A stretch of DNA of 32,000 bases from Geobacter metallireducens GS-15 (GTDB taxonomy: Bacteria; Desulfobacterota; Desulfuromonadia; Geobacterales; Geobacteraceae): the NCBI RefSeq assembly GCF_000012925.1, contig NC_007517.1, positions 3,360,001 to 3,392,000 on the forward strand, given 5' to 3'. The position numbers were made by a program, and so were the translations under genes. Shown one piece after another: positions 6,115 through 31,709 of the stretch; positions within the stretch are counted from its first letter, which is position 1; the number at the start of each line of letters is the position of its first letter. The notes under the pieces were generated by a model, which saw only the letters and a list, made by a program, of their open reading frames with translations, searched no databases and was not told the DNA's origin.

Positions 6115-6528
6115 ATGAAACGAATCGTCACTGCGGCAGTCATCCCGTTCCTCGCCCTCACGGCGGGGTGCGCCACCAAAACATTCGTCCAGGAGCAGAC
6201 CGCCCCCCTGGCGGACCGGATCAGCGGACTGGAAAAGCGGCTGAATACCATCGAAGCCCAGGTTGCCGATCTGTCGAAACGCCCCGTGGCCACACCAGCC
6301 GACCTGGACGCCGTGAAACGCGAAAACGCCGACATTCGCACCCAGGCCCAGCAGTCGGCCCAAAACGCCCAGCAATCGGCGGAAGCGGCCGCCGCCGCTG
6401 CAACCAGGGCCGAGACGGCGGCCACAAAGGCCGATGCGGCCGCAACGAAGGCAGAGGGAGCCGCCCGGCAGGCGGAACAGTCGGCGGGGAAATCAGCGAA
6501 GGCCTTCGAACTCCAGCAGAAAAAATAA
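6115..6528 (+). CDS. Lpp-like coiled-coil/alanine-rich lipoprotein ending in Lys-Lys
   Basis: Signal peptide with lipobox LTAGC, a heptad-like Ala/Gln-rich helix, and the C-terminus ...ELQQKK. Confidence 0.8.
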   Translation: MKRIVTAAVIPFLALTAGCATKTFVQEQTAPLADRISGLEKRLNTIEAQVADLSKRPVATPADLDAVKRENADIRTQAQQSAQNAQQSAEAAAAAATRAETAATKADAAATKAEGAARQAEQSAGKSAKAFELQQKK

Positions 6529-6534
6529 AAGCAT

Positions 6535-6680
6535 TCAATAACACGGAGAAACGGAGAACACGGAGTAAAGTCCGGCACGTGAGTTCAAGGACCATCCGAT
6601 TGTTATCACCTGTGGGGTCGGCAAAAAACTTATTCTATTCTATTGGGTTCTCCGTGCTCTCCGTCTCTCCGTGTTATTCA
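6535..6680. repeat. REP/MITE-like palindromic element, copy B
   Basis: ~34-nt arms AATAACACGGAGAAACGGAGAACACGGAGTAAAG (6537-6570) and its inverted repeat TTCTCCGTGCTCTCCGTCTCTCCGTGTTATT (6648-6678) flank ~77 nt of unrelated spacer. Confidence 0.7.
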
Positions 6681-6706: not shown

Positions 6707-7609
6707 TCACCGGCCGATGTCGACCGGCACCCCCCGCTTTTCGGCCAGGGCCCGGAAGAGACGCGGGAAATCCACCCGGTCGAGCCTCCCCCGCGCCATG
6801 ATTAGGCGGGTCGCCTCCGCCGCGTAGTCGATCCCGGCTCCCTCATCCCGATGGACCTCGATGAGGAGCCGCCCCTCCTGATCACCCACCTTCACCGGCT
6901 CCCGGACGATGGCTACCGGCGTCCCGAGGGAAACCAGCCGGAAAAGAACGGGGATATCCTCGGGATAGAGCCGGATACAGCCGTGGCTCACGTTACGACC
7001 AACCCCCCATGGCCGGTTGGTGCCGTGAATCATCAGGCCGTCGTCGGTAAGCCGCAGGGCGTGGCTTCCGAGAGGATTGTCGGGTCCCGGGGGAACCACG
7101 GCGGGTAGGCGAGGCCGCTCCTGGCGTATGGAGAGAGGAACGTGCCAGGCGGGATTGGCGCGCTTCTCCGTCACCCGGTAGACGCCGAGGGGGGTCTCCT
7201 TCCCCTCGCTTCCTGTCCCGACCGGAAAGGAGACAATGCGCGGCGTCCCCCCTTCCGGAACGAAGTAGAGGCGAAGTTCGGACAGATTCACCACCAGCCG
7301 TCCCGGCACCACCGCCGCCGGAACCACGTGCCGTCCGGGGATGGTGACGGGGCTGCCCGCGGTTGGGACAAAGGGGTCGAGACCGGGATTGGCCGCCGCA
7401 ATCTCATTGAAACCGAGGTCGTGGCTCCGGGCGACCTCGATGAGCGATTCTCCCTTCCGGGCCTCCTGAAGCGAACTCCGTCCCACCACCTCGGCCGGCC
7501 CCGGAAAGATGGTCGCCCCTGCCAACCGCGCCCCCAGAAGCGCCGCCCACACCAACAGCGCAACCTCCCGGCGCCACCGATTCCCGCCATTGCCCCACGG
7601 TGCCGCCAT
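6707..7609 (-). CDS. L,D-transpeptidase (YkuD domain) with an N-terminal LysM-like domain
   Basis: Catalytic motif HGTNRPWGVGRNVSHGCIRLYPEDI. LysM-like segment GESLIEVARSHDLGFNEIAAANP. N-terminal signal sequence. Confidence 0.85.
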   Translation of the reverse strand: MAAPWGNGGNRWRREVALLVWAALLGARLAGATIFPGPAEVVGRSSLQEARKGESLIEVARSHDLGFNEIAAANPGLDPFVPTAGSPVTIPGRHVVPAAVVPGRLVVNLSELRLYFVPEGGTPRIVSFPVGTGSEGKETPLGVYRVTEKRANPAWHVPLSIRQERPRLPAVVPPGPDNPLGSHALRLTDDGLMIHGTNRPWGVGRNVSHGCIRLYPEDIPVLFRLVSLGTPVAIVREPVKVGDQEGRLLIEVHRDEGAGIDYAAEATRLIMARGRLDRVDFPRLFRALAEKRGVPVDIGR

Positions 7610-13129: not shown

Positions 13130-13573
13130 ATGGCAATCGTCAAGTACACCCCGTTTGGGGACCTCAGGAATCTGCAGGAGCAGATGAACCGGCTTCTGGA
13201 CATGGCGTGGAGCAGGGAGAGCGGCGAAGAACTCCGCGAAGGGGTATGGCAGCCGCCGGTGGACATCTTCGAGGATGAAAACGGCGTCGTCATCAAGGCC
13301 GAACTCCCCGGCATCGACCAGAAGGACATCGAGGTAAAAATCGAGGACAACACCCTCACCATCCGGGGCGAGCGCAAGCACGACCAGGAAGTGAAGAAGG
13401 AGAACTACCATCGGGTTGAGCGGTACTACGGCTCCTTCATGCGGAGCTTCTCGCTCCCCACCACCATCGACCGCGATACCGTCAAGGCGGTCTGCGACAA
13501 GGGAATCCTGACTATAACCCTTCCCCGGCGCGAGGAAACCAAGCCGAAGCAGATCAACGTGGAAGTGAAATAA
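13130..13573 (+). CDS. Small heat-shock protein, Hsp20/alpha-crystallin family
   Basis: 147 aa. VDIFEDENGVVIKAELPGIDQKDIEVKIEDNTLTIRGERK...GSFMRSFSLP...GILTITLPR. Confidence 0.9.
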   Translation: MAIVKYTPFGDLRNLQEQMNRLLDMAWSRESGEELREGVWQPPVDIFEDENGVVIKAELPGIDQKDIEVKIEDNTLTIRGERKHDQEVKKENYHRVERYYGSFMRSFSLPTTIDRDTVKAVCDKGILTITLPRREETKPKQINVEVK

Positions 13574-13575
13574 AG

Positions 13576-13694
13576 CCGGGACCAGGGATCGGGGACCAGC
13601 AAGAAGCAAAAGATTTTCCCGGTCCCTAATCCCCGGTTTTCCCGGTCCCTAATCCCCGGTTTTCCCGGTCCCTGGTCCCTGGTCCCCGGTCCCC
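13576..13694. repeat. GGTCCC/GGGACC-type repeat block. A 23-bp unit TTTTCCCGGTCCCTAATCCCCGG is present 2.5 times in tandem, and inverted GGGACCAGGGA arms are also present
   Basis: Units at 13614-13636, 13637-13659 and a partial one from 13660. GGGACCAGGGATCGGGGACC (13578-13597) is complementary to GGTCCCTGGTCCC... (13668-13694). It lies between convergent hsp20 and the larE-like gene. Confidence 0.6.
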
Positions 13695-14491
13695 AGATTC
13701 ATGCTGCCTGTCCTATACCCCTCCAGATCCAGCGCCACGTAGGTAAACCCCGCCCCCTTGAAGAAGGCCGCCACCTTCCGGCGCATCGCCGGTTCCAGAA
13801 AGCGCGCAATCTCCGCTTCGCCCAGCTCGATGCGGGCCGTATCGCCATGGTAGCGGACCCGGTACGTGAAAAACCCCTCCCCCTTCAGGAACTCCTCGCA
13901 CTCCCCCACCTGCCGGAGCCGCTCCGGCGTGATTTCGGTCCCGTAGGGGAAGCGGCTCGACAGGCAGGCAAAAGCCTGCTTGTTCCACGTGGGAAGCCCC
14001 AGTTCCCGCGAGAGTTGCCGGATATCCTCCTTGCCGAGCCCCGCCTCCAGGAGCGGGCTCCGGACGCCGAGCTCCTGGATCGCCTGCCGGCCGGGACGGA
14101 AATCGGAGAGGTCATCCACGTTGCTCCCGTCGGCCGCCCAGGAAAGCCCCAACCCCGCGGCCCGTGCGCCTGCCAGCTGGAACAGCTCCTTCTTGCAGTG
14201 GTAGCAGCGGTTGCGGGGATTCCCGGCAAAACCGGGGATCTCCAGTTCGTTTGACTCCACCACCACCTGCCGGACACCTATCTCCAGGGCCAGGGCCACC
14301 GCCTCCCGGAACTCGGACTCGGGATAGGTGGGAGAGGTGGCGGTCAGGGCCACGGCCCTATCGCCCAGGACATCATGGGCCACCCGCAGGAGGAACGTGG
14401 AGTCCACCCCGCCGGAAAAGGCAACCAGCACCGAACCCATCTCCCTGAGGATGGCCTTGAGTTTTTCATATTTATCGTGAATGTCGTTCAT
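13649..14491 (-). CDS. larE: PP-loop ATP pyrophosphatase, LarE-like sulfur transferase (TIGR00268-type)
   Basis: PP-loop VAFSGGVDSTF, CYHCKKELF, and the conserved Cys segment FACLSSRFPYG. The last ~15 codons (GTGDQGPGTGKTGD) are read from the repeat block. Confidence 0.7.
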   Translation of the reverse strand: MNDIHDKYEKLKAILREMGSVLVAFSGGVDSTFLLRVAHDVLGDRAVALTATSPTYPESEFREAVALALEIGVRQVVVESNELEIPGFAGNPRNRCYHCKKELFQLAGARAAGLGLSWAADGSNVDDLSDFRPGRQAIQELGVRSPLLEAGLGKEDIRQLSRELGLPTWNKQAFACLSSRFPYGTEITPERLRQVGECEEFLKGEGFFTYRVRYHGDTARIELGEAEIARFLEPAMRRKVAAFFKGAGFTYVALDLEGYRTGSMNLGTGDQGPGTGKTGD

Positions 14492-21692: not shown

Positions 21693-22094
21693 ATGATGGC
21701 ACGATGCCTGGTTTTATTCACCGTCGCCCTGCTGGCCGCAAGTCTGGCCGGATCGGCGCGGGCCGAGATCTTCGTCGTGAGCAATAGCGGCACGTCCCTT
21801 GACTCCGATGAAATATTCGATGTGTTTCTCGGCGGCAAGCAGTTCAGCGGAGACACAAAACTGGTTCCAGTAGACAATGCCGCCGCCCACGAAGAGTTCC
21901 TGGCCAAGGTATTGCGGATGAGCCATTCGCGCTATACCGCCCTCTGGATACGAAAGTCGTTCAGGGACGGTACCCGCCAACCGCCTGTGAAGGCTGGTGA
22001 TACTGAAACCATTGAATTCGTGAGGAAAACACCCGGAGCGGTTGGCTATGTGAGAGTCCTCCCCAAAGGGCTCAAGGTTATCAGGTCCTATTGA
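21693..22094 (+). CDS. Small periplasmic PBP-like (phosphate-binding-protein-like) domain protein
   Basis: Signal peptide plus a ~110-aa domain (IFVVSNS...FLGGK...W....F......P......E..I.FV...PGAVGYV). Its stop overlaps the kinase start (TGATG). Confidence 0.55.
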   Translation: MMARCLVLFTVALLAASLAGSARAEIFVVSNSGTSLDSDEIFDVFLGGKQFSGDTKLVPVDNAAAHEEFLAKVLRMSHSRYTALWIRKSFRDGTRQPPVKAGDTETIEFVRKTPGAVGYVRVLPKGLKVIRSY

Positions 22095-24517
22095 TGGGCA
22101 ACGATATGAGAAACGACGTCAAATCACTCCGTGCGGGCATATTCTCAGAAATCATCATCGTCTTCCTCCCCCTGACGATGCTGCTCATCTATCAGACCGT
22201 CAGCGACATCACCGTCTCCGACAGGCTTGCCGACACCCATCGGCTCCTTGCCGCCTCGTCGTCGGCCTACCAGAGATACAGACTGTTCGTCAACGGCGTC
22301 GTTGATGCGATCGATACCGGCAGAGTCTCCGAGGATGCCGTCCACAACCTCGAACATACAACCGTTGAACTCAAGTCCATCACCACCGGGGACCGCAGCA
22401 GTGATTTCAGTTCCCTGGCGGCCAGGACAAACGCCCTGCTCGCGCACCTGAGGAAAGACCGCTCCTTCGGGAAGGTACTGCCGCTGCGGGATACCATCAA
22501 TGGGATCGATGCGGACCTGTCGGCGCTTGCCGCACAATGCGACGAAACAAATCGACAAATGATCCTGGAGAACATCAATTCCACCCAGTCCAGAAAGATC
22601 ATGGTGTTCACGGCCCTGGCACTGGGAGCACTCGTCACACTTGCCCTGATTGTCATGCTTATTCGGCATGTTACCCGGTTCGAGCTGGTCTTGCGGGAGA
22701 GCGAAGAGCGAATGCGGGTAATGTTCGAGTCGATCAACGCCGGCATTGTGCTCATCGATTGCGATAACAACAGCATCGTGGATGTCAATCCGACTGCGCT
22801 TCGCCTGCACGGGGGAACAAAGGAGGAATTGATAGGGTATCCGAGTGAGCGTCTCTTCCATGGGGACAATGTGCGGACAGATCCGGAGCATGACGAGGGG
22901 AAGGCAATCGACATATCCAAGGGGATGTTGAGCCTGTGCAATGGCGAACGCCTTCCCGTCCTTGAATCGGTCAACTACGTGGCCATAAACGGTCGCCGGT
23001 ATATGCTGAAAAGCTTTGTCGACCTGTCGAAACAGATGACCCTGGAAACCGAGCTCCTTGCCGCCAAGGAGGCTGCCGAGGCGGCCAGCAGGGCCAAAAG
23101 CATATTTCTCGCCAGCATGAGCCATGAAATCCGGACTCCCATGAACGCTATCATCGGCTATGCGCAACTGCTGAAGCGAGAAGGCAATCTTGCGCCACAA
23201 CAGGGACAATACCTCAATGTCATCAACAACAGCGGAGAGCATCTCCTCAAGCTGATCAACGACATTCTCGAAATGTCGAAAATCGAGTCCGGCACGGTCA
23301 ACCTCACGCCGGTTCCCTTCAATTTTCACAATCTGCTGCACGACGTGGAATCCCTGTTCGCCGACCGGGCCAGGCAGAAGAAGCTGCGGTTCGACGTCCG
23401 GTTGCAGGGCGAGGTACCCGTGGTGCTGGATGCGGATGAGATGAAAGTGCGCCAGGTCCTCATCAACATGATCGGCAACGCGCTCAAATTCACCGACGAG
23501 GGGACGATTGCCGTCACGGTTTCCTCCTCGACCGACAGCCCGGACAAAGAACGTGACACGTACGGCGAAACGGCCATAACCGTCGATGTCGAAGACTCGG
23601 GAATCGGAATCTCTGCCGAGGAGGCAGACCAAGTCTTTGCCCTGTTCGAGCAGACCGAAAGCGGCCGACGCAGGATAGGAGGAACGGGACTCGGCATGCC
23701 AATCAGCCGCCAGTTCGCCCGACTGATGGGAGGAGACCTGTTTCTTGTGCGCGGCGAGCCCGGCATCGGCTCGGCATTCCGTTTTGTCTTCAGGGCAAAG
23801 GCGCTGGACCTGGCGGAATTCAAGCAGCCGGCAGTCGATGAGCGGTTCTTCTGGCGGATTATCCCGGACGAAAAAGAATGGCGCGTCCTGGTCGTCGATG
23901 ACCAGGAGAACAACCGGAGCCTTTTGTCGCACATGCTCACCAGGGCCGGCTTTGCGGTTCGCGAGGCGGACGGCGGCATTGACGGCGTCGCCCAGTTTCG
24001 CGCCTGGCTTCCCGATATCGTTCTGATGGATATCCTGATGCCGGATATGGACGGCTATGAGGCCCTGCGGCAGATAAAGGCAACCTCAGAGGGGGGCGTT
24101 ACCCCCGTAATCGCCGTTACCGCCAGCGTCATGATGGATGAACATCAGAAGGCCCTCGATCTTGGATTTGACGGTTTCATCATGAAGCCGGTTTCCATGG
24201 AGTGCCTCTTCGAGGAAATCCGGCGTCTCACCAACGTGGCCTATCTGTACGATGACAGCAGGTCCTCCGGGGATGCGGCCGCGGAGATCCTTCCCCCCTG
24301 GGTTGACAGGCTGACCACGCTGCCGGACGTTCTCCTGGGGGCCATGCGTGATGCGCTTGAGGCGGGAGACATTGCTTCACTTCGGGGGCTCATCGAGCAG
24401 ATAGGCGAGTCCGAACCGATACCGGCCGAAGCGTTACGCCGCCTTGTCGATTCTTATTCCTACGACGAACTGACCACACTGCTTGCAGGGGGGGACGCCA
24501 GATATGCCAGCGCTTGA
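22094..24517 (+). CDS. Hybrid sensor histidine kinase/response regulator (periplasmic domain, PAS, HisKA, HATPase_c, REC, and a C-terminal helical tail lacking His)
   Basis: Two TM segments, H-box SMSHEIRTPMNAI, N/G boxes NMIGNALKFT and DSGIGI..GGTGLGM, and REC VLVVDDQENNRSLL...DIVLMDILMPDMDG. Confidence 0.9.
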   Translation: MGNDMRNDVKSLRAGIFSEIIIVFLPLTMLLIYQTVSDITVSDRLADTHRLLAASSSAYQRYRLFVNGVVDAIDTGRVSEDAVHNLEHTTVELKSITTGDRSSDFSSLAARTNALLAHLRKDRSFGKVLPLRDTINGIDADLSALAAQCDETNRQMILENINSTQSRKIMVFTALALGALVTLALIVMLIRHVTRFELVLRESEERMRVMFESINAGIVLIDCDNNSIVDVNPTALRLHGGTKEELIGYPSERLFHGDNVRTDPEHDEGKAIDISKGMLSLCNGERLPVLESVNYVAINGRRYMLKSFVDLSKQMTLETELLAAKEAAEAASRAKSIFLASMSHEIRTPMNAIIGYAQLLKREGNLAPQQGQYLNVINNSGEHLLKLINDILEMSKIESGTVNLTPVPFNFHNLLHDVESLFADRARQKKLRFDVRLQGEVPVVLDADEMKVRQVLINMIGNALKFTDEGTIAVTVSSSTDSPDKERDTYGETAITVDVEDSGIGISAEEADQVFALFEQTESGRRRIGGTGLGMPISRQFARLMGGDLFLVRGEPGIGSAFRFVFRAKALDLAEFKQPAVDERFFWRIIPDEKEWRVLVVDDQENNRSLLSHMLTRAGFAVREADGGIDGVAQFRAWLPDIVLMDILMPDMDGYEALRQIKATSEGGVTPVIAVTASVMMDEHQKALDLGFDGFIMKPVSMECLFEEIRRLTNVAYLYDDSRSSGDAAAEILPPWVDRLTTLPDVLLGAMRDALEAGDIASLRGLIEQIGESEPIPAEALRRLVDSYSYDELTTLLAGGDARYASA

Positions 24518-25589
24518 GCAGCCGCCCAATATCATGATAGTGGACGACACTCCTGCCAATCTCCGGCTTCTTGAAACGATGCTGCAGGAAAAGAATTACC
24601 GCGTGCTGTTGTTTCCACGGGCGGATATCGCCCTGAAAGCGGCGAAGAAAAATCCCCCCGACCTGGTGCTGCTCGACATCACCATGCCGGGAATGGATGG
24701 CTTCCAGTTTTGCGCGAGCCTGAAGGCGGACAGCCGTTTATGCTCCACTCCGGTAATCTTTCTCAGCGGCCTGAACGAGCCGGCGGATAAGGTCAAGGCG
24801 TTCAGCCTGGGGGGGGTGGATTACATAACCAAGCCGTTCCAGCTCGAAGAGGTCCATGCGCGGGTGGAAACCCATCTCAACCTTCGTCGTCTGCAGATGG
24901 AAGTGGAATCCCATAACCGCAACCTTGAGAGCCAAGTTGAGGCGTATGCGAAAGAGATTATCGCCTCCCAGATGGCGACCATTTTCGCCCTGGCGAAACT
25001 TGCCGAGTCCCGCGATGACAACACCGGCAAGCACGTCGAACGGGTTCAGATTTACTGCCGCCTGCTTGCGCAGCGACTGGCGGAAAAGGGACCGTACCGG
25101 GGAGAAGTCACCCCGGAATTCATCAACAACATAACCTTTGCAAGCCCGCTCCATGACATAGGAAAGGTGGCCATAGTCGACCGCGTGCTGCTTAAGCCCG
25201 ACAAACTGACAGCGGAAGAATTCAAGATCATGCAGACCCATACGGTAATCGGAGCGCAAACCCTTGCCACGGCCCTGGCAAAATATCCGCAGAACGAGTT
25301 TCTCCGTACCGGCATTGCCATAGCGCAGTCACATCACGAATGGTGGGATGGCACCGGTTACCCCGACGGGATCAAGGGGAGGGAAATCCCGCTCCATGCC
25401 CGCATCACCGCCGTCGCGGACGTTTACGACGCACTCCGTTCCAATCGATGCTATCGGTTGTCACTACCCCATGAGGAAGTCCGTGCAATGATTCTGGAAG
25501 GATCAGGCACCCAGTTCGACCCGGATGTGGTTGCAGCGTTCATCGAATCCGAGGATGAATTCTTTGCGATAAGCTGCGAATTGGGCTGA
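24504..25589 (+). CDS. Response regulator with an HD-GYP output domain (RpfG-type c-di-GMP phosphodiesterase)
   Basis: REC IMIVDDTPANLRLL...LVLLDITMPGMDG...KPF, plus HDIGKV and HHEWWDGTGYPDG. Overlaps the kinase gene by 14 nt. Confidence 0.9.
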   Translation: MPALEQPPNIMIVDDTPANLRLLETMLQEKNYRVLLFPRADIALKAAKKNPPDLVLLDITMPGMDGFQFCASLKADSRLCSTPVIFLSGLNEPADKVKAFSLGGVDYITKPFQLEEVHARVETHLNLRRLQMEVESHNRNLESQVEAYAKEIIASQMATIFALAKLAESRDDNTGKHVERVQIYCRLLAQRLAEKGPYRGEVTPEFINNITFASPLHDIGKVAIVDRVLLKPDKLTAEEFKIMQTHTVIGAQTLATALAKYPQNEFLRTGIAIAQSHHEWWDGTGYPDGIKGREIPLHARITAVADVYDALRSNRCYRLSLPHEEVRAMILEGSGTQFDPDVVAAFIESEDEFFAISCELG

Positions 25590-25651: not shown

Positions 25652-26101
25652 TCAGGCGTTTGCGTCGGTCTTCTCGGCACTCGCATGCACCCCGGCAGGG
25701 GGAGCAGCGGCCTTCGCGAATGCTTCGAGCTCGAAGCGGTTGTGCAGGTACGGATTGCGCCCCAGCAGTTTTTGAACGGCACTGGAGCCGAGGTAGAGGG
25801 GAATGAGGAGGATGCCCCACCGCTCGTACTGGCGGACATGGACATGCTCGTGGGTGCGCAGCTGCGCCAGGAGGGAGTGATCGAGCCCGATCACCACATG
25901 GCCGAAGGTAATGGCCTCGAAGTGGAAGATGCGGGGGAGCAGGGGAAAGAGGCGAAAGAGCTTGCCGCCGGCCACCTCGACCACCCCGTCGGCCACGCGG
26001 CAGGTGGCCCCCAGACATATCGCGACAGCCGCCAGGAGAAGCCCCAGAACGCTTGCGGGAGAGGCCCACAGGTAGCGGAGAATGAGAAGCAAACGGTTCA
26101 T
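25652..26101 (-). CDS. Hypothetical small membrane protein with an HExxH motif (THEHVHVRQYERWG)
   Basis: 149-aa ORF with host-like GC and an N-terminal TM segment. It starts 31 nt downstream (on the minus strand) of the last attC. Confidence 0.55.
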   Translation of the reverse strand: MNRLLLILRYLWASPASVLGLLLAAVAICLGATCRVADGVVEVAGGKLFRLFPLLPRIFHFEAITFGHVVIGLDHSLLAQLRTHEHVHVRQYERWGILLIPLYLGSSAVQKLLGRNPYLHNRFELEAFAKAAAPPAGVHASAEKTDANA

Positions 26102-26132: not shown

Positions 26133-26199
26133 CGGCAACCCGCGTCAGGCTTCAGGGGTTGGAGCGATAGCGACGGTGCACTGGAAGTTACAGTTGGAC
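26133..26199 (-). other. Integron attC recombination site (distal, slightly divergent copy)
   Basis: Minus strand: GTCCAAC-tgtaaCTTCCAGtgcaccgtcgctatcgctccaaCCCCTGAAGcctgacgcgg-GTTGCCG. Same architecture and core as the attCs at 29243 and 30026. Starts right after the higA stop. Confidence 0.7.
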
Positions 26200-26502
26200 T
26201 CAGGCGGCCTTGTTGAAAGGCTTAATTTCCTGCTCCAATGTGTCTTCGGCGTCACGCGCCACTTCAAGGTCGTAGTGTGCCTGCAAGTTGATCCAGAATT
26301 GGGCGGTAGTTCCGAAATACCGGCCAAGGCGAAGCGCGGTGTCTGCCGAGATGCCGCGCTTTTCCAGAACGATTTCATTTATACGCCGCGCAGGCACATG
26401 AATTTCCTTGGCGAGCCGATACTGACTGATGCCCAACGGAACAAGAAACTCTTCTCTCAGGATTTCGCCGGGATGAATGGGCGGAAAATCTCTTTTGCTC
26501 AT
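26200..26502 (-). CDS. higA: HigA-family antitoxin (HTH_XRE, addiction module antidote protein)
   Basis: 100 aa. PIHPGEILREEFLVPLGISQYRLAKEIHVPARRINEIVLEKRGISADTALRLGRYFGTTAQFWINLQ. Confidence 0.85.
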   Translation of the reverse strand: MSKRDFPPIHPGEILREEFLVPLGISQYRLAKEIHVPARRINEIVLEKRGISADTALRLGRYFGTTAQFWINLQAHYDLEVARDAEDTLEQEIKPFNKAA

Positions 26503-26511
26503 GACTCACTC

Positions 26512-26568
26512 CCTAATGGTAGTCCACAATCTCCACTTCAAAGGCGTTACCGTCCCGCCAACGAAATA
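26512..26568 (-). pseudogene. higB: HigB toxin remnant: only the last 18 codons (LFRWRDGNAFEVEIVDYH*), preceded by an in-frame TGA
   Basis: My own translation of the minus strand. It matches the C-terminus of the intact HigB at 1-278 at 15 of 18 positions. The stop is 9 nt before the higA ATG. Upstream sequence (26572-26730) is AT-rich with no HigB similarity. Confidence 0.7.
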
Positions 26569-26730
26569 ATCACCGGCGCAAGGAACGAGCGTCCGGTGTA
26601 TTACCTGGTTATGCACTTATGCCCTGTCAACGTGCTGTTTATGCTGTCTTTTGTTACGTGTTGACCCTATTGCCCATCGCCTTTTACTTAATAATTCACT
26701 GATTTATGATCGTACCAGACTCGCGTACGG

Positions 26731-27795
26731 CTAGTACCGCAAGTAAAGCGTGAAATCATGGCCTGCGTTAATTGGGTAGCTACCAAAGACCATGCTGTTG
26801 TCGAGTACGGTCCAATTCGATCCGTCGAAGCGATATGAATTCGCCGGGCCGGTCACGATCGGACTGCTGAGTATGACGATGATGTCATTTGTCCCGCGGG
26901 CGGCAATGCTCATGGATTGGGGATTTCTTGTTTCCCGGTAAGTTAGCCTAGCCCAGTTGAGTCCGTTGTCGGAAGTATAAATGAAAAGAAAGTAATGACT
27001 AATTTGTTCACCGGGTAGTGGGTCCCGTTGGCGAACCACCGCGACATAAAAGCGCTGTCGGTCGCGAGCGAGGGCGTGCGCACCTATAGGCGGTCCAAAT
27101 CCCTGTTCGGGTACGTTAGCACTGAACAAGTACCCTGGTTGCCACACGGGATTTCCCCCTTGAATATCACCCGTTACCATCTGAAGTTGGTTATTCATCA
27201 GCCAAGAGACTATGATTTTGCCATTTCGGTTCACGAGGGCAGGCTTATCAATGAGATTGTTATTCGCAGCTACACCGCTCACAGGAGTCACCTCAGCTTT
27301 AAAGTCCTGAGGATATGAATTGTCATATATAACGACCTTTGCTTGATTGTAATGATTATACGCTACCAACCATTTCTCTCCCTCGATATGGACAATCGAT
27401 GTTCCCGAATGGATCTCATTTGGATGACCGTCACCCACTGTTCTAGGTGTGTTGTCCCACGAGTTGTATAAGCCTCTTAATACTCTTACAGGATATGACC
27501 CACTTGCTTTAAAGATTGCCAGGTAGATGCCCACATCATCTGTATCAATGCCCGGCGCAAAGTCTACATTTTGAGGTGTTCCTGCTGCCGCAGACCAGGT
27601 CGTTCCATCATCTGACCAGCGGAAGCGAAGATTCCAGCTCGTGTCAACGTAAGCAAAAACATAGGGGTTTTTTGTATCCCCATTTTGGTTTATACAAAAT
27701 GGTGGGCAGCATGCTGAAAGCCCTATTAATACCAATATACTTATGAGAATCCATGTGAACGTGTTACTAATATTCAAGATTTTTTTCATTTTCAT
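26731..27795 (-). CDS. Lipoprotein with BNR/Asp-box repeats (predicted beta-propeller, sialidase-like fold)
   Basis: Signal peptide with lipobox LSAC. Asp-boxes SDDGTTW and SDNGLNW. Low-GC ORF. Confidence 0.7.
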   Translation of the reverse strand: MKMKKILNISNTFTWILISILVLIGLSACCPPFCINQNGDTKNPYVFAYVDTSWNLRFRWSDDGTTWSAAAGTPQNVDFAPGIDTDDVGIYLAIFKASGSYPVRVLRGLYNSWDNTPRTVGDGHPNEIHSGTSIVHIEGEKWLVAYNHYNQAKVVIYDNSYPQDFKAEVTPVSGVAANNNLIDKPALVNRNGKIIVSWLMNNQLQMVTGDIQGGNPVWQPGYLFSANVPEQGFGPPIGAHALARDRQRFYVAVVRQRDPLPGEQISHYFLFIYTSDNGLNWARLTYRETRNPQSMSIAARGTNDIIVILSSPIVTGPANSYRFDGSNWTVLDNSMVFGSYPINAGHDFTLYLRY

Positions 27796-27853
27796 ACCCT
27801 CTCTTAATTTTTGAAAATATTGAACCTAAAAAAATATGACCGATATATATTCT

Positions 27854-29225
27854 GGCTCTTTAGCAGAATCTGTGGTGACACAGGGGTTCTGGCAAGTCGC
27901 CAAGTGTGTGATATAGCGCCACTTGCAGGCACTTGATGGTTCGGAAACCGTACGCTTTTCTGATAGTCAGTTTTGCTTTGAGGTTCAGACCCTCTACCGC
28001 GCCGCTGGAAAGTCGGCCTTTTGCCTTGAACCAGTTGAGAATCATCGGTTTGTGGTTGCGTAACATCCTGGCAACCTTCTTCATCGGTTCCAGGTCAGTT
28101 TGCATTGTCCTGATGACCCAGTCGTCGAGGAACTTGCCAGCAAAGTCAGACCGCTGGTAGTCCCAGAACTGCTGAAAGTCCTCGCGCAGCAGATATGCCT
28201 TGATTGATGAGAGGTTGAGCTTGAGCAAATCTCCCAATCGTGACGTCTGCTTCTCGGACAGATTTTCCGGCCGTTTCAGCAGCAACCAACGGCCCTTTTC
28301 CAGGACGTTCTCCTGCTTGGCGGCCTTGAACTCCTTGGCTTCGGTGCGCCGAACCTCGTCAATCGCTTCGTTAAACTTCCGCATGATGTGGAAGCGGTCG
28401 AGGATGTTCACGGCATTGGGTGCCCGCTTGGCGATAACCTTGAGATACGGTGCCCACATGTCGCTGCAGACATACTTGAGCTTGGCGCTGCGTTCTTTGC
28501 CGAATTCCCGAAAGAAGCGCAGTAGCGTTCTTATCCGACGTTGCGGACCACACCAGAGAAGACGCCTGACGCCGGCATTGAGCTGATAGACCATCGTAAG
28601 ATACTGATGGCCCTTGAAGACGGCAATTTCATCAACACCGATTTCCGTAACGCCATCAAGGTTTCTGTTTGCCAGGCCGTAATCGACAGCATACTGCACC
28701 GCCCGAAAGATGCTGTCCCAACTGGTCTTAAAGATTTCGGCAACTTCCTTCCAGGAGAGTCGCCGAGCCCACCGGGCAAGATAGACCTGGTACGAGATCG
28801 TCATTTGCTCTTTGCCATACCCCCAGGGGAGGGATTCAACCTTTACCCCATGGATTGGGCACAGAACCCGACGGGGAGCGTAGCGAAAGAAGACCTTGAA
28901 CGCCCAGATCGGCACATACTCGAACAGTCGGGCCGGTTGCGTGTCGTATGTCTTGCCTCGCTTGCCACATTCCGGGCATTCGGGCTTGCTGTTGCGACGA
29001 GCCTTGATGTCAATGACCAGTGCTTCTGAGCCGCCGACTTTCGCCAGTCGGCAATCTCCGTAAATGAAGGACTTGAAACGCTCGAACTTGTTCAGTACAG
29101 TCTTGATAAGCATTGCTTCTCCCGTGTCGGACTTGATCGTTTCTCGCAAAAACAATCTTATCCTTCACGGAGGGGCAATGCCCTTATTTTTTCAGCCAAC
29201 TACCCACAGATTCTGCGGACGAGGC
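27854..29225 (-). mobile_element. ISL3-family insertion sequence (1372 bp) with imperfect terminal IRs and an 8-bp target-site duplication
   Basis: IRs GGCTCTTTAGCAGAATCTGTGG (27854-27875) and the reverse complement of CCCACAGATTCTGCGGACGAGGC (29203-29225). Direct repeats TATATTCT at 27846-27853 and 29226-29233. Confidence 0.85.
27860..29113 (-). CDS. ISL3-family transposase
   Basis: zf-ISL3 CPECGKRGKTYD...CPIHG plus a DDE_Tnp_ISL3 region (IGVDEIAVFKGHQYLTMVY..., CSDMWAPYLKVI, DRFHIMRKFNEAIDEVRR). Start at MLIKTVL (ATG at 29113) after GGGAGAAG. Confidence 0.9.
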   Translation of the reverse strand: MLIKTVLNKFERFKSFIYGDCRLAKVGGSEALVIDIKARRNSKPECPECGKRGKTYDTQPARLFEYVPIWAFKVFFRYAPRRVLCPIHGVKVESLPWGYGKEQMTISYQVYLARWARRLSWKEVAEIFKTSWDSIFRAVQYAVDYGLANRNLDGVTEIGVDEIAVFKGHQYLTMVYQLNAGVRRLLWCGPQRRIRTLLRFFREFGKERSAKLKYVCSDMWAPYLKVIAKRAPNAVNILDRFHIMRKFNEAIDEVRRTEAKEFKAAKQENVLEKGRWLLLKRPENLSEKQTSRLGDLLKLNLSSIKAYLLREDFQQFWDYQRSDFAGKFLDDWVIRTMQTDLEPMKKVARMLRNHKPMILNWFKAKGRLSSGAVEGLNLKAKLTIRKAYGFRTIKCLQVALYHTLGDLPEPLCHHRFC

Positions 29226-29242
29226 TATATTCTTAATAATAA

Positions 29243-29305
29243 GCATAACGTCAGGCTTCAGGGGCCGGAGCGATAGCGACGGTCCCCTGGAAGTAAATGT
29301 TAGCC
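29243..29305 (-). other. Integron attC recombination site
   Basis: Minus strand: GGCTAAC-atttaCTTCCAGGGGaccgtcgctatcgctccggCCCCTGAAGcctgac-GTTATGC. R''/L''/L'/R' arrangement with unpaired bases. The R'' box contains the TIR gene stop codon. Confidence 0.75.
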
Positions 29306-30010
29306 AGCAATACAGCGTCCTTGTTTACAACCTGGAAATCTGGAAGGCGGAACGTCTGTGCCACCCCTAGCCCAGTCAATTGCCGCGAACGCGAAACTGT
29401 CACAGCAGGGGAATCTATAGACTTCCCTGTAGTCATCTCGGGCACCCAGGCTTTTGACGTGAAGAGCCGGTTCCGGATGGTAGGAGCAATGCGGAGGATC
29501 CCGCTGATCAAATTGGTGGCCACAGTTGGTGCAGATCGCTAAATCCTGAAATTTCGGAACAGGAGAAGCAGGAAGAGCACGCATTATGTACTCAGAGAGC
29601 TCATTCAGATGGTCTAACCCGTGTGGGAATGCTTGATTCTGTCGGAGCGTTCGAGGTAACTCCTTTGTGCTCATCTTTTCGTAGTAGACGAAAAGCCTCC
29701 CTTGCGGCTTTACGCCACTCAAGACATCGTTGTAAAAGCTATCCCACTCGTAACGTACCCATTTAGACTCAAGATTCTCGCGTGATGTCCCCACAGCAAT
29801 GAGTACGGTACTTGAATCCAATGCATCGTCTATGCACTTCTTGTACTCAGACTCTCCAAGGCGAGGAAGGGAAAGGTTGCTGTAGAACACATCCAAGCCG
29901 CGACTTGTAAACTCCCGGTAGAGAAGATCCGCAAGCTGGCTGTCACGCGTTGGTAGTCCTTGCTCATCAGAATTCTTGAACGATATGAAGACTTGATAAC
30001 TGTGGGCCAT
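29300..30010 (-). CDS. TIR-domain (ThsB-like) protein with a C-terminal Cys/His-rich zinc-module-like domain (236 aa)
   Basis: N-terminus YQVFISFKNSDEQG...LIAVGTS...SKWVRYEW (TIR_2/ThsB-like, putative catalytic Glu88). C-terminus C160-x2-C-x11-C-x-YHP-x2-P-x2-H...C202C203...GC228KQGRC233. Confidence 0.8.
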   Translation of the reverse strand: MAHSYQVFISFKNSDEQGLPTRDSQLADLLYREFTSRGLDVFYSNLSLPRLGESEYKKCIDDALDSSTVLIAVGTSRENLESKWVRYEWDSFYNDVLSGVKPQGRLFVYYEKMSTKELPRTLRQNQAFPHGLDHLNELSEYIMRALPASPVPKFQDLAICTNCGHQFDQRDPPHCSYHPEPALHVKSLGARDDYREVYRFPCCDSFAFAAIDWARGGTDVPPSRFPGCKQGRCIAG

Positions 30011-30025
30011 ATTTAAACTCTATCG

Positions 30026-30088
30026 GGCTAACGTCTCGCTTCAGGGGCCGGCGCGATAGCGACGGTCCCCTGGAAGTGTCAGTTGGGC
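30026..30088 (-). other. Integron attC recombination site
   Basis: Minus strand: GCCCAAC-tgacaCTTCCAGGGGaccgtcgctatcgcgccggCCCCTGAAGcgagac-GTTAGCC. About 90% identical to the attC at 29243. Confidence 0.75.
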
Positions 30089-30097
30089 AGCCGTCCT

Positions 30098-30541
30098 CTA
30101 GCAAAAGGTACTGGTTTTGCCCTTACTGAGCCATTCTCCGATTAGGCCAGTAAGGATTATCGAAATGAACGTGGAGAACCAAAAGCCACTTATAAGAAGG
30201 CCCTTGTACTCCTTTTTCAGAAGTTCGTCCGGATGCGTAGGGAAGGAGAGTGCTGGGTTGCGCGCATCGTAGTAGATGGTGATAACATCGCCGACCGCTC
30301 CACCGCAGACTCGCCATGTCCTGCGGTAGAGTTGGTTGCCAACGGTGTAGGAATATATTTCCAGCTTTTTGGGTGTCGTATTGTCTATGCCAACGATGGT
30401 GGCTTTGGTAGCCACTGGAGCTTGGCTTAATTGGTAATATTGCGGCCAATTACTCCAAGTAAAGGCAATGAAAACGGCAAACACACCAGCTAGCACCAAC
30501 CAAAGGGGAAGAAATATGGCTATTTTTTTCAAAAGTCCCAT
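30098..30541 (-). CDS. DUF3592-like membrane protein (first cassette)
   Basis: 147 aa. N-terminal TM, a beta-rich middle (ATIVGID...YSYTVGNQLYRRTW....GDVITIYYDARNP), and C-terminal TM segments. Confidence 0.65.
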   Translation of the reverse strand: MGLLKKIAIFLPLWLVLAGVFAVFIAFTWSNWPQYYQLSQAPVATKATIVGIDNTTPKKLEIYSYTVGNQLYRRTWRVCGGAVGDVITIYYDARNPALSFPTHPDELLKKEYKGLLISGFWFSTFISIILTGLIGEWLSKGKTSTFC

Positions 30542-30704
30542 TGTGCAACGACCCTACATTCGCCCATTTCATTGTGTTTGAGTCACCAAGCCCCCCAACG
30601 TTGATTGGACGCCCTAAAAGGCGTGGAATTTTGCGCCAGTATGGTGTATAAGGCAGTCTTGAGTCAAGCTAATTAATGAATTCTACTCGTAAAGGGATTC
30701 TGAA
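30542..30704. promoter_or_regulatory. Integron attI / divergent promoter region
   Basis: 163-bp gap between divergent intI and the first cassette. Candidate crossover boxes on the cassette strand are GTTGGGG (plus 30593-30599) and GTTGCAC (30543-30549). Candidate cassette-directed promoter is TTGACT (30667-30662)-N18-CATACT (30643-30638). Confidence 0.45.
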
Positions 30705-31709
30705 ATGCACCCCATCAACATGGGCAAAAACGCCTCTGCTGTCGAACCCGAAAAACCCCGCCTCCTGGATATCCTCCGCACCAGAATCCGCCTCAAACAT
30801 TACAGCCTCCGCACGGAGCAGACTTACACCGAATGGGCGAAGCGCTACATTCTCTTCCATGGCAAACGCCATCCCGCCGAGATGGGGAAGGAAGAGGTGG
30901 AGGCGTTTCTCTCCCATCTGGCGGTGAAGCACAATGTCTCGGCCTCGACCCAGAGCCAAGCCCGGGCCGCGATTCTTTTTCTCTACCGCGAGGTACTCGA
31001 CATTGAACTCCCCTGGCTGGACGATGTGGAACAGGCGAAGAAGCCCCAACGGCTGCCGGTGGTGCTGACGGTAAGCGAGGTGCAGGCTCTCCTCTCCCGC
31101 CTGACCGGAACCCATGCGCTGATGGGGCGACTGATGTACGGTACCGGCATGCGCCTGATGGAGACGGTGCGGCTGCGGGTGAAGGATGTGGATTTCGAGC
31201 GGAGCGAGATCATCGTCCGGGAAGGTAAGGGTGCAAAGGATCGGATCACCATGCTCCCCCAAGCGGTTGCGGCCCCGCTGCGGGAGCACCTGGGGCGGGT
31301 GGAGGCTCTTCACGGGGCGGATTTGAGGGCCGGCTTCGGCGAGGTCCACCTCCCCCATGCCCTCGGGAAGAAGTACCCGAACGCGGGTCGGGAATGGGGA
31401 TGGCAGTATGTGTTCCCGGCAAAGCAGCTTTCGACGGACCCGCGCACGGGGGTAACCCGTCGGCACCACGCTGACGAGAAGGGAATCCAGCGGGCCATCC
31501 GTCAGGCAGTGCGGGACGCGGAGCTTGCCAAGCCAGCCACTCCCCACACGCTACGGCACTCCTTCGCGACGCACCTGCTCCAGTCGGGCTACGATATCCG
31601 CACGGTGCAGGAACTTCTGGGCCACAAGGATGTGCAGACGACGATGATCTACACCCATGTGCTGAACCGTGGCGGCAAAGGGGTGGAAAGTCCCCTTGAT
31701 CGGCTGTAG
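30705..31709 (+). CDS. intI: Integron integrase IntI (tyrosine recombinase)
   Basis: 334 aa. [39 protein letters not shown], the IntI-specific extra segment [21 protein letters not shown]...DPRTG..RRHH, and [35 protein letters not shown]. Confidence 0.9.

Follow-up and report, generated by a model that had tools for sequence, protein, structure and literature searches.

The intI locus of Geobacter metallireducens GS-15 reads as a small chromosomal integron with four cassettes, one heterologous attC site and an orphan higA

The superintegron of Vibrio cholerae contains about 180 cassettes, and the large arrays known as sedentary chromosomal integrons (SCI) hold tens of them, the IntegronFinder-based threshold being more than 10 attC sites. 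An attC site is made up of R''-L''...L'-R' boxes and, on its bottom strand, the extrahelical bases are carried by the '' arm. The present study concerns a much shorter array next to the integron integrase gene (intI) of Geobacter metallireducens GS-15, within a stretch of 32,000 nucleotides hereafter called the window. The element is already known: its integrase is annotated in GenBank and figures in published surveys of integrons. Nemergut et al. 2008 (PMC2426708) placed one G. metallireducens intI beside a betaproteobacterial clade and suggested horizontal transfer of this intI; a 'Gme' IntI was listed by Cambray et al. 2011 (PMC3108266) and served as a reference for Elsaied et al. 2011 (PMC3146285); and an IntegronFinder survey reported complete integrons in more than half of the strains of one Geobacteraceae subclade (PMC11434368). 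In the searchable literature we found no mention of the locus tags Gmet_3001 to Gmet_3006, nor a detailed anatomy of the array, with its four cassettes, heterologous attC, ISL3-family element and truncated higB.

We are highly confident that the region is a complete chromosomal integron, consisting of intI, attI and four cassettes. This call, in line with that of an earlier note made from the letters of the window, is carried by an integrase recognized by a curated hidden Markov model; by attC sites that are strand-asymmetric and fold as bulged hairpins on the bottom strand; by models of these sites that generalize to other intI loci; by the crossover points; by an insertion sequence (IS) lying with its target duplication inside one cassette; and by cassettes that vary among relatives. 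For the latter aspect, the comparison loci were those of Geobacter grbiciae (L089) and of a related metagenome-assembled genome (MAG; L088). The features are the following, in window coordinates, with Pc standing for the promoter from which the cassettes would be read.

25652-26101, minus strand: Gmet_3000, a conserved chromosomal flank gene (149 aa) which marks the array end
26137-26199, plus strand: terminal attC, a decayed member of the attC1/attC2 family, 76% identical to the reference copy
26143-26561, minus strand: cassette 4 (419 bp), with an intact higA at 26200-26502 (100 aa, Gmet_3001) and a 3' remnant of higB at 26512-26561
26556-26614, plus strand: attC-X, a heterologous site which closes cassette 3; R' CGCCAAC, 13-bp stem, R'' GTTATGC
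26562-29248, minus strand: cassette 3 (2687 bp; 1307 bp once the IS and its duplication are subtracted), open reading frame (ORF) at 26731-27795 (354 aa, Gmet_3002)
27854-29225, minus strand: ISL3-family IS (1372 bp) in the 5' leader of cassette 3, transposase ORF at 27860-29155
29243-29305, plus strand: attC2, of the attC1 family; R' GCATAAC, R'' GTTAGCC
29249-30031, minus strand: cassette 2 (783 bp), ORF at 29300-30010 (236 aa, TIR-domain protein, Gmet_3004)
30026-30088, plus strand: attC1; R' GGCTAAC, 6-nt spacer, 12-bp stem, R'' GTTGGGC
30032-30598, minus strand: cassette 1 (567 bp), ORF at 30098-30541 (147 aa, membrane protein, Gmet_3005)
30599-30704, minus strand: attI region and intI-cassette intergenic control region, as delimited by a three-species alignment
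30638-30667, minus strand, directed into the array: candidate Pc, TTGACT, 18-nt spacer, CATACT (sigma-70-like consensus, 9/12)
30705-31709, plus strand: intI, integron integrase ABB33221.1 (334 aa, full length)

This part of the window corresponds to Gmet_3000 to Gmet_3006, of which Gmet_3000 to Gmet_3005 are ABB33215 to ABB33220; an exact-protein match showed that strain RCH3 has the same proteins as the neighbouring ORFs of GS-15. The integrase scored 482.7 bits against TIGR02249 'integron integrase' (cut-off 265), and its residues 24-334 align to VchIntIA (PDB 2A3V) with 297 bits, the IntI-specific segment included; the R, K, HxxR, H and Y residues of the tyrosine-recombinase active-site motifs can also be recognized there. 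The earlier note had identified the ORF at 30705-31709 as an IntI from its IntI-specific insertion, and had regarded an integrase lacking that domain as fatal to its reading: the family model is passed and the insertion aligns with the VchIntIA segment. The score against the class-1 IntI1 equivalog NF011946 was 404 bits, below the cut-off of 435. Among the matches listed, which come from species-representative genomes, the closest IntIs (64-75% identity) are those of Gallionella, Nitrosomonadales/Nitrosomonas and Rhodocyclaceae, and IntI is nearer to these beta-/gammaproteobacterial proteins than to those of other Deltaproteobacteria. According to the ORF list, every ORF located between the repeats is on the minus strand and points away from intI, as had been claimed for the low-GC (guanine plus cytosine) ORFs. 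The accompanying claim of a sharp drop in GC at 26.5-30.6 kb holds for the cassettes (0.45-0.53, versus 0.61 in the left flank and 0.63 in intI and to its right), but part of that interval is filled by the IS, whose GC is 0.53.

As the cassettes sit on the minus strand, the plus strand of the window is the bottom strand of attC. Three direct repeats of 63 nt make up one family (26140-26202, 76% identity; 29246-29308, the reference; 30029-30091, 86%), and their 38-nt core is present in 2 exact copies, versus 0 in shuffled sequences; the three palindromes pointed out by the earlier note are this family, at or very near the same positions. When folded as DNA, the plus strand of attC1 reaches -18.9 kcal/mol (z = -3.7) versus -13.2 for the minus strand, and that of attC2 -13.3 kcal/mol (z = -2.8) versus -11.2. 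In both single-stranded plus-strand folds the R boxes are paired, a spacer of 5-6 nt is unpaired and a 12-bp stem follows, whose 3' arm alone bears two bulges of one base each, T and G: this layout is that of a canonical attC. Thus, the RYYYAAC...GTT layout announced for three sites, and the extrahelical bases to be looked for on their bottom strands, were found in attC1 and attC2, but not in the terminal copy (26137-26199), which has lost the R' triplet and does not fold. There, CGC (26141-26143) replaces the AAC of the family R' box; the orthologous site of L088 (7221-7285) has AGC at that place and shares with the terminal copy the spacer and R'' (TTACAGTTGGAC).

Three repeats are too few to bound four cassettes, and the boundary they leave unaccounted for is attC-X, located between the 354-aa ORF and higA. 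It has two bulged T on its 3' arm, and its plus-strand fold is of -11.1 kcal/mol. The array does hold four cassettes, as had been proposed, but one boundary is this non-family site, overlooked by the earlier note; the homogeneity attributed to the attC sites therefore applies to the three family members, which are 76-86% identical, and not to attC-X, which is of a different family.

Two kinds of search were used for attC sites. The rule-based scanner looked for an AAC and a GTT 48-140 nt apart, with spacers of 3-8 nt and a stem of 9 bp or more in which the 3' arm alone carried bulged bases, one to three of them. Applied to both strands of the window it gave four matches, for a block-shuffle mean of 0.75; three of them, attC1, attC2 and attC-X, are in the array and on the plus strand. 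The fourth, at 1977-2043, was taken as a false positive: it is a weak structure inside a long ORF, without a match to the second of the models described next.

The other search relied on two covariance models: R1, derived from the aligned 12 family sites of the three Geobacter genomes, and R2, a broadened version derived from 40 matches, 28 of which are heterologous, with attC-X kept outside the training set. On the plus strand of the window, R1 gave 83.6 bits for attC1, 81.9 for attC2 and 65.0 for the terminal site; on the reverse strand attC1 and attC2 dropped to 23 and 12.8 bits, and nothing besides these family-site matches was found across the window at E < 1. With R2 the values were 75.6, 74.5 and 49.9 bits, and attC-X was detected at 26555-26615, on the plus strand only (23.0 bits, E about 9e-4), with nothing else new. 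The earlier note would have given up its reading if an attC covariance model had failed on all three sites; in the equivalent form used here, they scored 50-84 bits on the plus strand with R1 and R2. Both models were also run on 82 loci, chosen for no other reason than that they encode an IntI homologue and turned so that intI is on the plus strand. R1 picked out about 24 heterologous sites (E <= 0.01) in beta-/gammaproteobacterial contigs, all on the intI strand and upstream of intI. For R2, there were 232 matches at E <= 0.01, on the intI strand and upstream of intI (position checked by eye), save for the flipped locus L089 and one reverse-strand duplicate. Another candidate attC, at the inverted repeat 26626-26665 (GTCAAC...GTTGAC), was rejected: its fold is of -2.7 kcal/mol (z = -1.4) and neither R1 nor R2 matches it. 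This weak inverted repeat is in the 116-bp non-coding spacer (26615-26730) which separates the stop codon of the 354-aa lipoprotein ORF from attC-X.

On the other side of the array, the aligned sequences of the three Geobacter loci are near-identical between the intI ATG and ...AAC (30597-30599), and directly to the left of this AAC they are unrelated; in blastn, the match to the window begins at 30597 for L089 and at 30587 for L088. Because conservation between species stops at this AAC, the attI crossover, read on the cassette strand, is placed at G|TT between 30599 and 30598. The candidate Pc is the sole sigma-70-like match in 30450-30950 and its stretch is 100% conserved across the three loci. 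Near the intI promoter no match was found to GGTTN2CN4GN3ACC, which we take to be the Geobacter-type LexA box; elsewhere there were 14 matches with one mismatch, which is the chance expectation.

The crossovers at attI and attC1 define the boundaries of cassette 1, and the junctions carry the signature of cassette circles, in that the six bases following each crossover G complement the R'' box of the next attC downstream. In the window, complementarity is 6/7 from attI to attC1, 7/7 from attC1 to attC2, 7/7 from attC2 to attC-X and 5/7 from attC-X to the terminal site; in the G. grbiciae array it is 7/7, 6/7, 6/7 and 7/7. Cassette 1 starts with TTGGGG, a 6/7 match to the reverse complement of the attC1 R'' box (GTTGGGC), and cassette 2 with TTAGCC, which complements the R'' box of its own attC (GGCTAA) exactly. 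Cassette 3 begins with TTATGC, the exact complement of the attC-X R'' box (7/7 with the G), as expected if cassette 3 was once a circle closed by attC-X.

The contents of the cassettes are as follows. The protein of cassette 1 reached 21.6 bits against Pfam DUF3592, below the cut-off of 25.3, and blastn found no homology to this cassette in the L088 or L089 arrays. That of cassette 2 just passed Pfam TIR_2 (28.2 bits, cut-off 28) and gave weak matches to ThsB/PDC-S66 (PADLOC) and to Thoeris ThcB4; the TIR-domain cassette may be an anti-phage defence cassette. The other cassettes had no PADLOC match. Cassette 3, of GC 0.45 without the IS, codes for a predicted lipoprotein (UniRef name 'Lipoprotein') without match in Pfam, NCBIfam or PADLOC. 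The IS in its leader was identified by its transposase (NF033550, 309 bits for a cut-off of 180; DDE_Tnp_ISL3, 264 bits), and a script verified both its terminal inverted repeats (27854-27875 and 29204-29225) and the 8-bp target duplication TATATTCT at 27846-27853 and 29226-29233. Short-read assemblies of G. metallireducens break at this element. In cassette 4, HigA scored 113 bits against TIGR02607 (cut-off 47.7), and what is left of higB is the last ~17 codons, with a translation ending ...FRWRDGNAFEVEIVDYH*. There is no intact higB upstream; this is an orphan higA and not a HigBA pair.

Comparison with the two relatives, which the earlier note had called for, revealed different cassettes in the same slot, with boundaries at attC sites. 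IntI is identical to that of the window at 333/334 residues in G. grbiciae and at 316/334 in the MAG. All three genomes have the macro-domain and D-Tyr-tRNA deacylase (dtd) genes on the intI side and Gmet_3000 or its orthologue on the array side. In the window, the array ends about 40 bp from the Gmet_3000 start codon, and a two-component system lies beyond that gene. In G. grbiciae the orthologue (L089 10001-10450) adjoins the array end; in L088 (4898-5347) two more genes stand between it and the last family attC. There are five family sites in L089 and at least four in L088. The L089 array consists of two unknown ORFs, a cassette present twice with 100% identity and an intact higBA, and that of L088 of a 272-aa ORF, an intact higBA and a DUF2442 gene, then LysE and methyltransferase genes. 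Identical gene content without attC in all relatives, the outcome held by the earlier note to contradict an integron, was thus not what was seen: both loci differ from the window and carry family attC sites. Between 26562 and 30596 of the window, blastn found nothing in common with the L088 and L089 arrays other than the attC repeats. What does match is 26143-26560, at 88.8% (blastn), with the higBA cassette of L088 (7787-8207): this block begins at the C of the attC crossover, its other end is no more than 1 nt away from the attC-X G|TT, and a codon-level comparison made higB homology clear only from TGG CGG GAC GGT AAC... onward. Farther afield, the exact attC core occurs on eight metagenome contigs, and one 8.3-kb metagenome contig, from another genome, has at least 10 sites of the Geobacter attC family.

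A few peculiarities of the relatives were observed in passing. The duplication in the G. grbiciae array is a 300-nt stretch repeated at 100% identity (L089 6567-6866 and 8772-9071), so that the first and fourth cassettes are identical, as are the attC sites that follow them; the ORF list has no entry for this stretch. In L088, 5348-7220 holds the LysE-family and methyltransferase genes, between the last family attC (7221-7285, R' AGC) and the Gmet_3000 orthologue, and R2 found a 33-bit attC-like site between these two genes (6510-6580); the L088 array probably extends further, with heterologous attC sites. Finally, a PemK-type toxin gene with a small upstream ORF is found between dtd and a DUF2400 gene, on the intI-distal side (L088 12003-12622, L089 3842-4461), and is absent from that position in G. 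metallireducens.

From established integron biology, we infer that IntI, a tyrosine recombinase, would recombine the folded bottom strand of attC (plus strand of the window) with the double-stranded attI beside intI. Promoterless cassettes would be inserted at attI, at the crossover G|TT 30599/30598, and would be read from a promoter in the intI-attI intergenic region, for which 30667-30638 is the candidate. On this reading, IntI would still be active at present and the candidate Pc would drive the cassettes.

Since the similarity to intact higB sets in no more than 1 nt from the crossover, the higB truncation in cassette 4 can be read as an IntI-mediated recombination, or deletion, between attC-X and a secondary GTT site inside higB; such an IntI-type deletion removing most of higB would be the simplest reading of the junction, an unrelated deletion being also possible. 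The two IntIs differ by 1/334 residues, yet G. metallireducens and G. grbiciae share no cassette but a diverged higA, implying that cassettes were replaced within a very short evolutionary time; cassette turnover while IntI changed by one residue argues for recent activity. That the integron was very recently active and that the orphan higA came from an IntI-mediated deletion between attC-X and the GTT in higB is a combination we advance tentatively, and with rather more doubt than assurance. If true, this would be a case from nature in which an integron has disarmed a toxin-antitoxin cassette, the host being a strict anaerobe without a recognizable LexA box at its intI.

Several points weigh against the conclusion that this is a complete integron, or one still at work. 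R1 and R2 were built for this analysis and are not the IntegronFinder attC model; R1 does not detect attC-X, which scores only 23 bits with R2. In the 12-site family alignment, 89% of cells are paired and covariation is no different from that of shuffles, but the test is uninformative because the sites are too similar. The terminal attC has stem mutations and no hairpin fold (z = -0.2). The Pc is a candidate proposed from a consensus match only, and the ISL3 element separates cassettes 3 and 4 from any transcript it would drive. The G. metallireducens assemblies examined that carry the exact IntI all have the same first two cassettes, although these assemblies probably derive from one or two strains. 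The lack of demonstrable covariation would also suit repeats of the repetitive extragenic palindrome or miniature inverted-repeat transposable element (REP/MITE) type, lying by chance beside a tyrosine recombinase gene, with the low-GC genes being an island acquired otherwise; the repeats are indeed short, imperfect and intergenic palindromes. We consider this extremely improbable: the family occurs nowhere else in the window; in two relatives and in metagenome contigs it is confined to arrays on the attI side of intI or to attC-like tandem arrays; the sites that the family model picks out in unrelated intI loci are strictly biased as to strand and side; homology between species breaks on the G|TT crossover; and the window has neither a tRNA gene nor island-type direct repeats. 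A mobile integron of the class 1-5-like sort, brought into the chromosome by a transposon or a plasmid, is hardly more credible. The affinity of IntI with beta-/gammaproteobacterial IntIs (64-75%, among the matches listed), which fits the published suggestion of horizontal transfer (PMC2426708), and the IS within the array could be taken in its favour. However, there are no tni or Tn402-type genes and no plasmid context, and the IS went into a single cassette as a simple insertion, flanked by an 8-bp duplication of its own. A transposon-borne integron was excluded because the housekeeping flanks are conserved (their synteny is kept in G. grbiciae and, save for the two-component pair, in L088) and because IntI failed the IntI1 equivalog (404 bits for a cut-off of 435).

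The remaining alternative, which we regard as unlikely though less so than the two preceding ones, is that of a fossil: a structure that is an integron's but is now inactive, with a frozen array, no expression from Pc and the fate of ordinary chromosomal DNA. In keeping with it are the decay of the terminal attC, without canonical R' triplet, the ISL3 element inside cassette 3, the truncation of higB, the constancy of the two proximal cassettes in all short-read assemblies with the exact IntI and the failure to find a LexA-type box, the mark of SOS regulation, near intI. But IntI is full length with all its catalytic motif residues, the structure of attC1 and attC2 is preserved, the attI region has hardly changed among the three genomes, and an IntI which is 333/334 identical to that of G. 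grbiciae coexists with arrays having only a diverged higA in common. We therefore hold to a complete chromosomal integron, in which the decay of the last attC, the presence of the IS and the truncation of higB are wear of the kind usual in such arrays.

Other observations concern the surroundings of the array. Directly beyond Gmet_3000, 22091-25589 codes for a hybrid histidine kinase/response regulator (808 aa) and an HD-GYP-type response regulator (368 aa); the pair is syntenic in G. grbiciae and absent from the corresponding place in L088. A scan of the whole window at the Rfam gathering thresholds gave no family, and attC corresponds to no Rfam family as far as this search shows. Farther to the left, the 23-nt unit TTTTCCCGGTCCCTAATCCCCGG is repeated perfectly in tandem at 13614-13673 (2.6 copies). 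This repeat runs on into GGTCCC-rich sequence; it lies just downstream of a small heat-shock (Hsp20-like) ORF (13130-13573) and overlaps the 5' end (start codon region) of the minus-strand ORF 13649-14491.

Beyond correct annotation, the significance of the locus is small: the bacterium is a well-studied metal reducer, and its chromosomal integron a textbook case. What is added is a base-accurate map of the attI crossover, the cassettes, the heterologous attC, the ISL3 element, the truncated higB and the decayed attC. The pair formed by G. metallireducens and G. grbiciae, with near-identical IntIs and different cassettes, is also a convenient natural system for cassette turnover in anaerobes.

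Set against known systems, the Geobacter element has the recombination logic of class 1 integrons, i.e. IntI, attI, and attC with R and L boxes and extrahelical bases. It differs from them by an IntI below the NF011946 cut-off, by a candidate Pc which is intergenic and not inside intI, and by a window devoid of Tn402 backbone, 3'-conserved segment and resistance cassettes. The likeness to the V. cholerae superintegron is closer: IntI aligns end to end with VchIntIA, three of the four attC sites form one family specific to a group of species, in the manner of the V. cholerae repeats (VCRs), a toxin-antitoxin-type cassette is present, and the chromosomal location is conserved between related species. 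The differences are that the array has 4 cassettes, that its attC sites are of 59-63 nt versus about 120 nt for VCRs, one of them being heterologous, and that the toxin-antitoxin cassette has lost its toxin gene. The term 'sedentary chromosomal integron' used in the earlier note is right as to location, which is fixed in three Geobacter genomes, but not as to size: four attC sites and four cassettes in the window do not make a large SCI. Because there are only four cassettes and one attC is heterologous, we prefer the label of small chromosomal integron to that of a large sedentary 'super-integron'. The nearest counterparts are the chromosomal integrons of soil and freshwater proteobacteria (Nitrosomonas europaea, Azoarcus, Dechloromonas), whose IntIs belong to the same clade: they have the same layout, with divergent intI/attI and a promoterless array bounded by attC sites, and from these the Geobacter integron shows no difference in kind.

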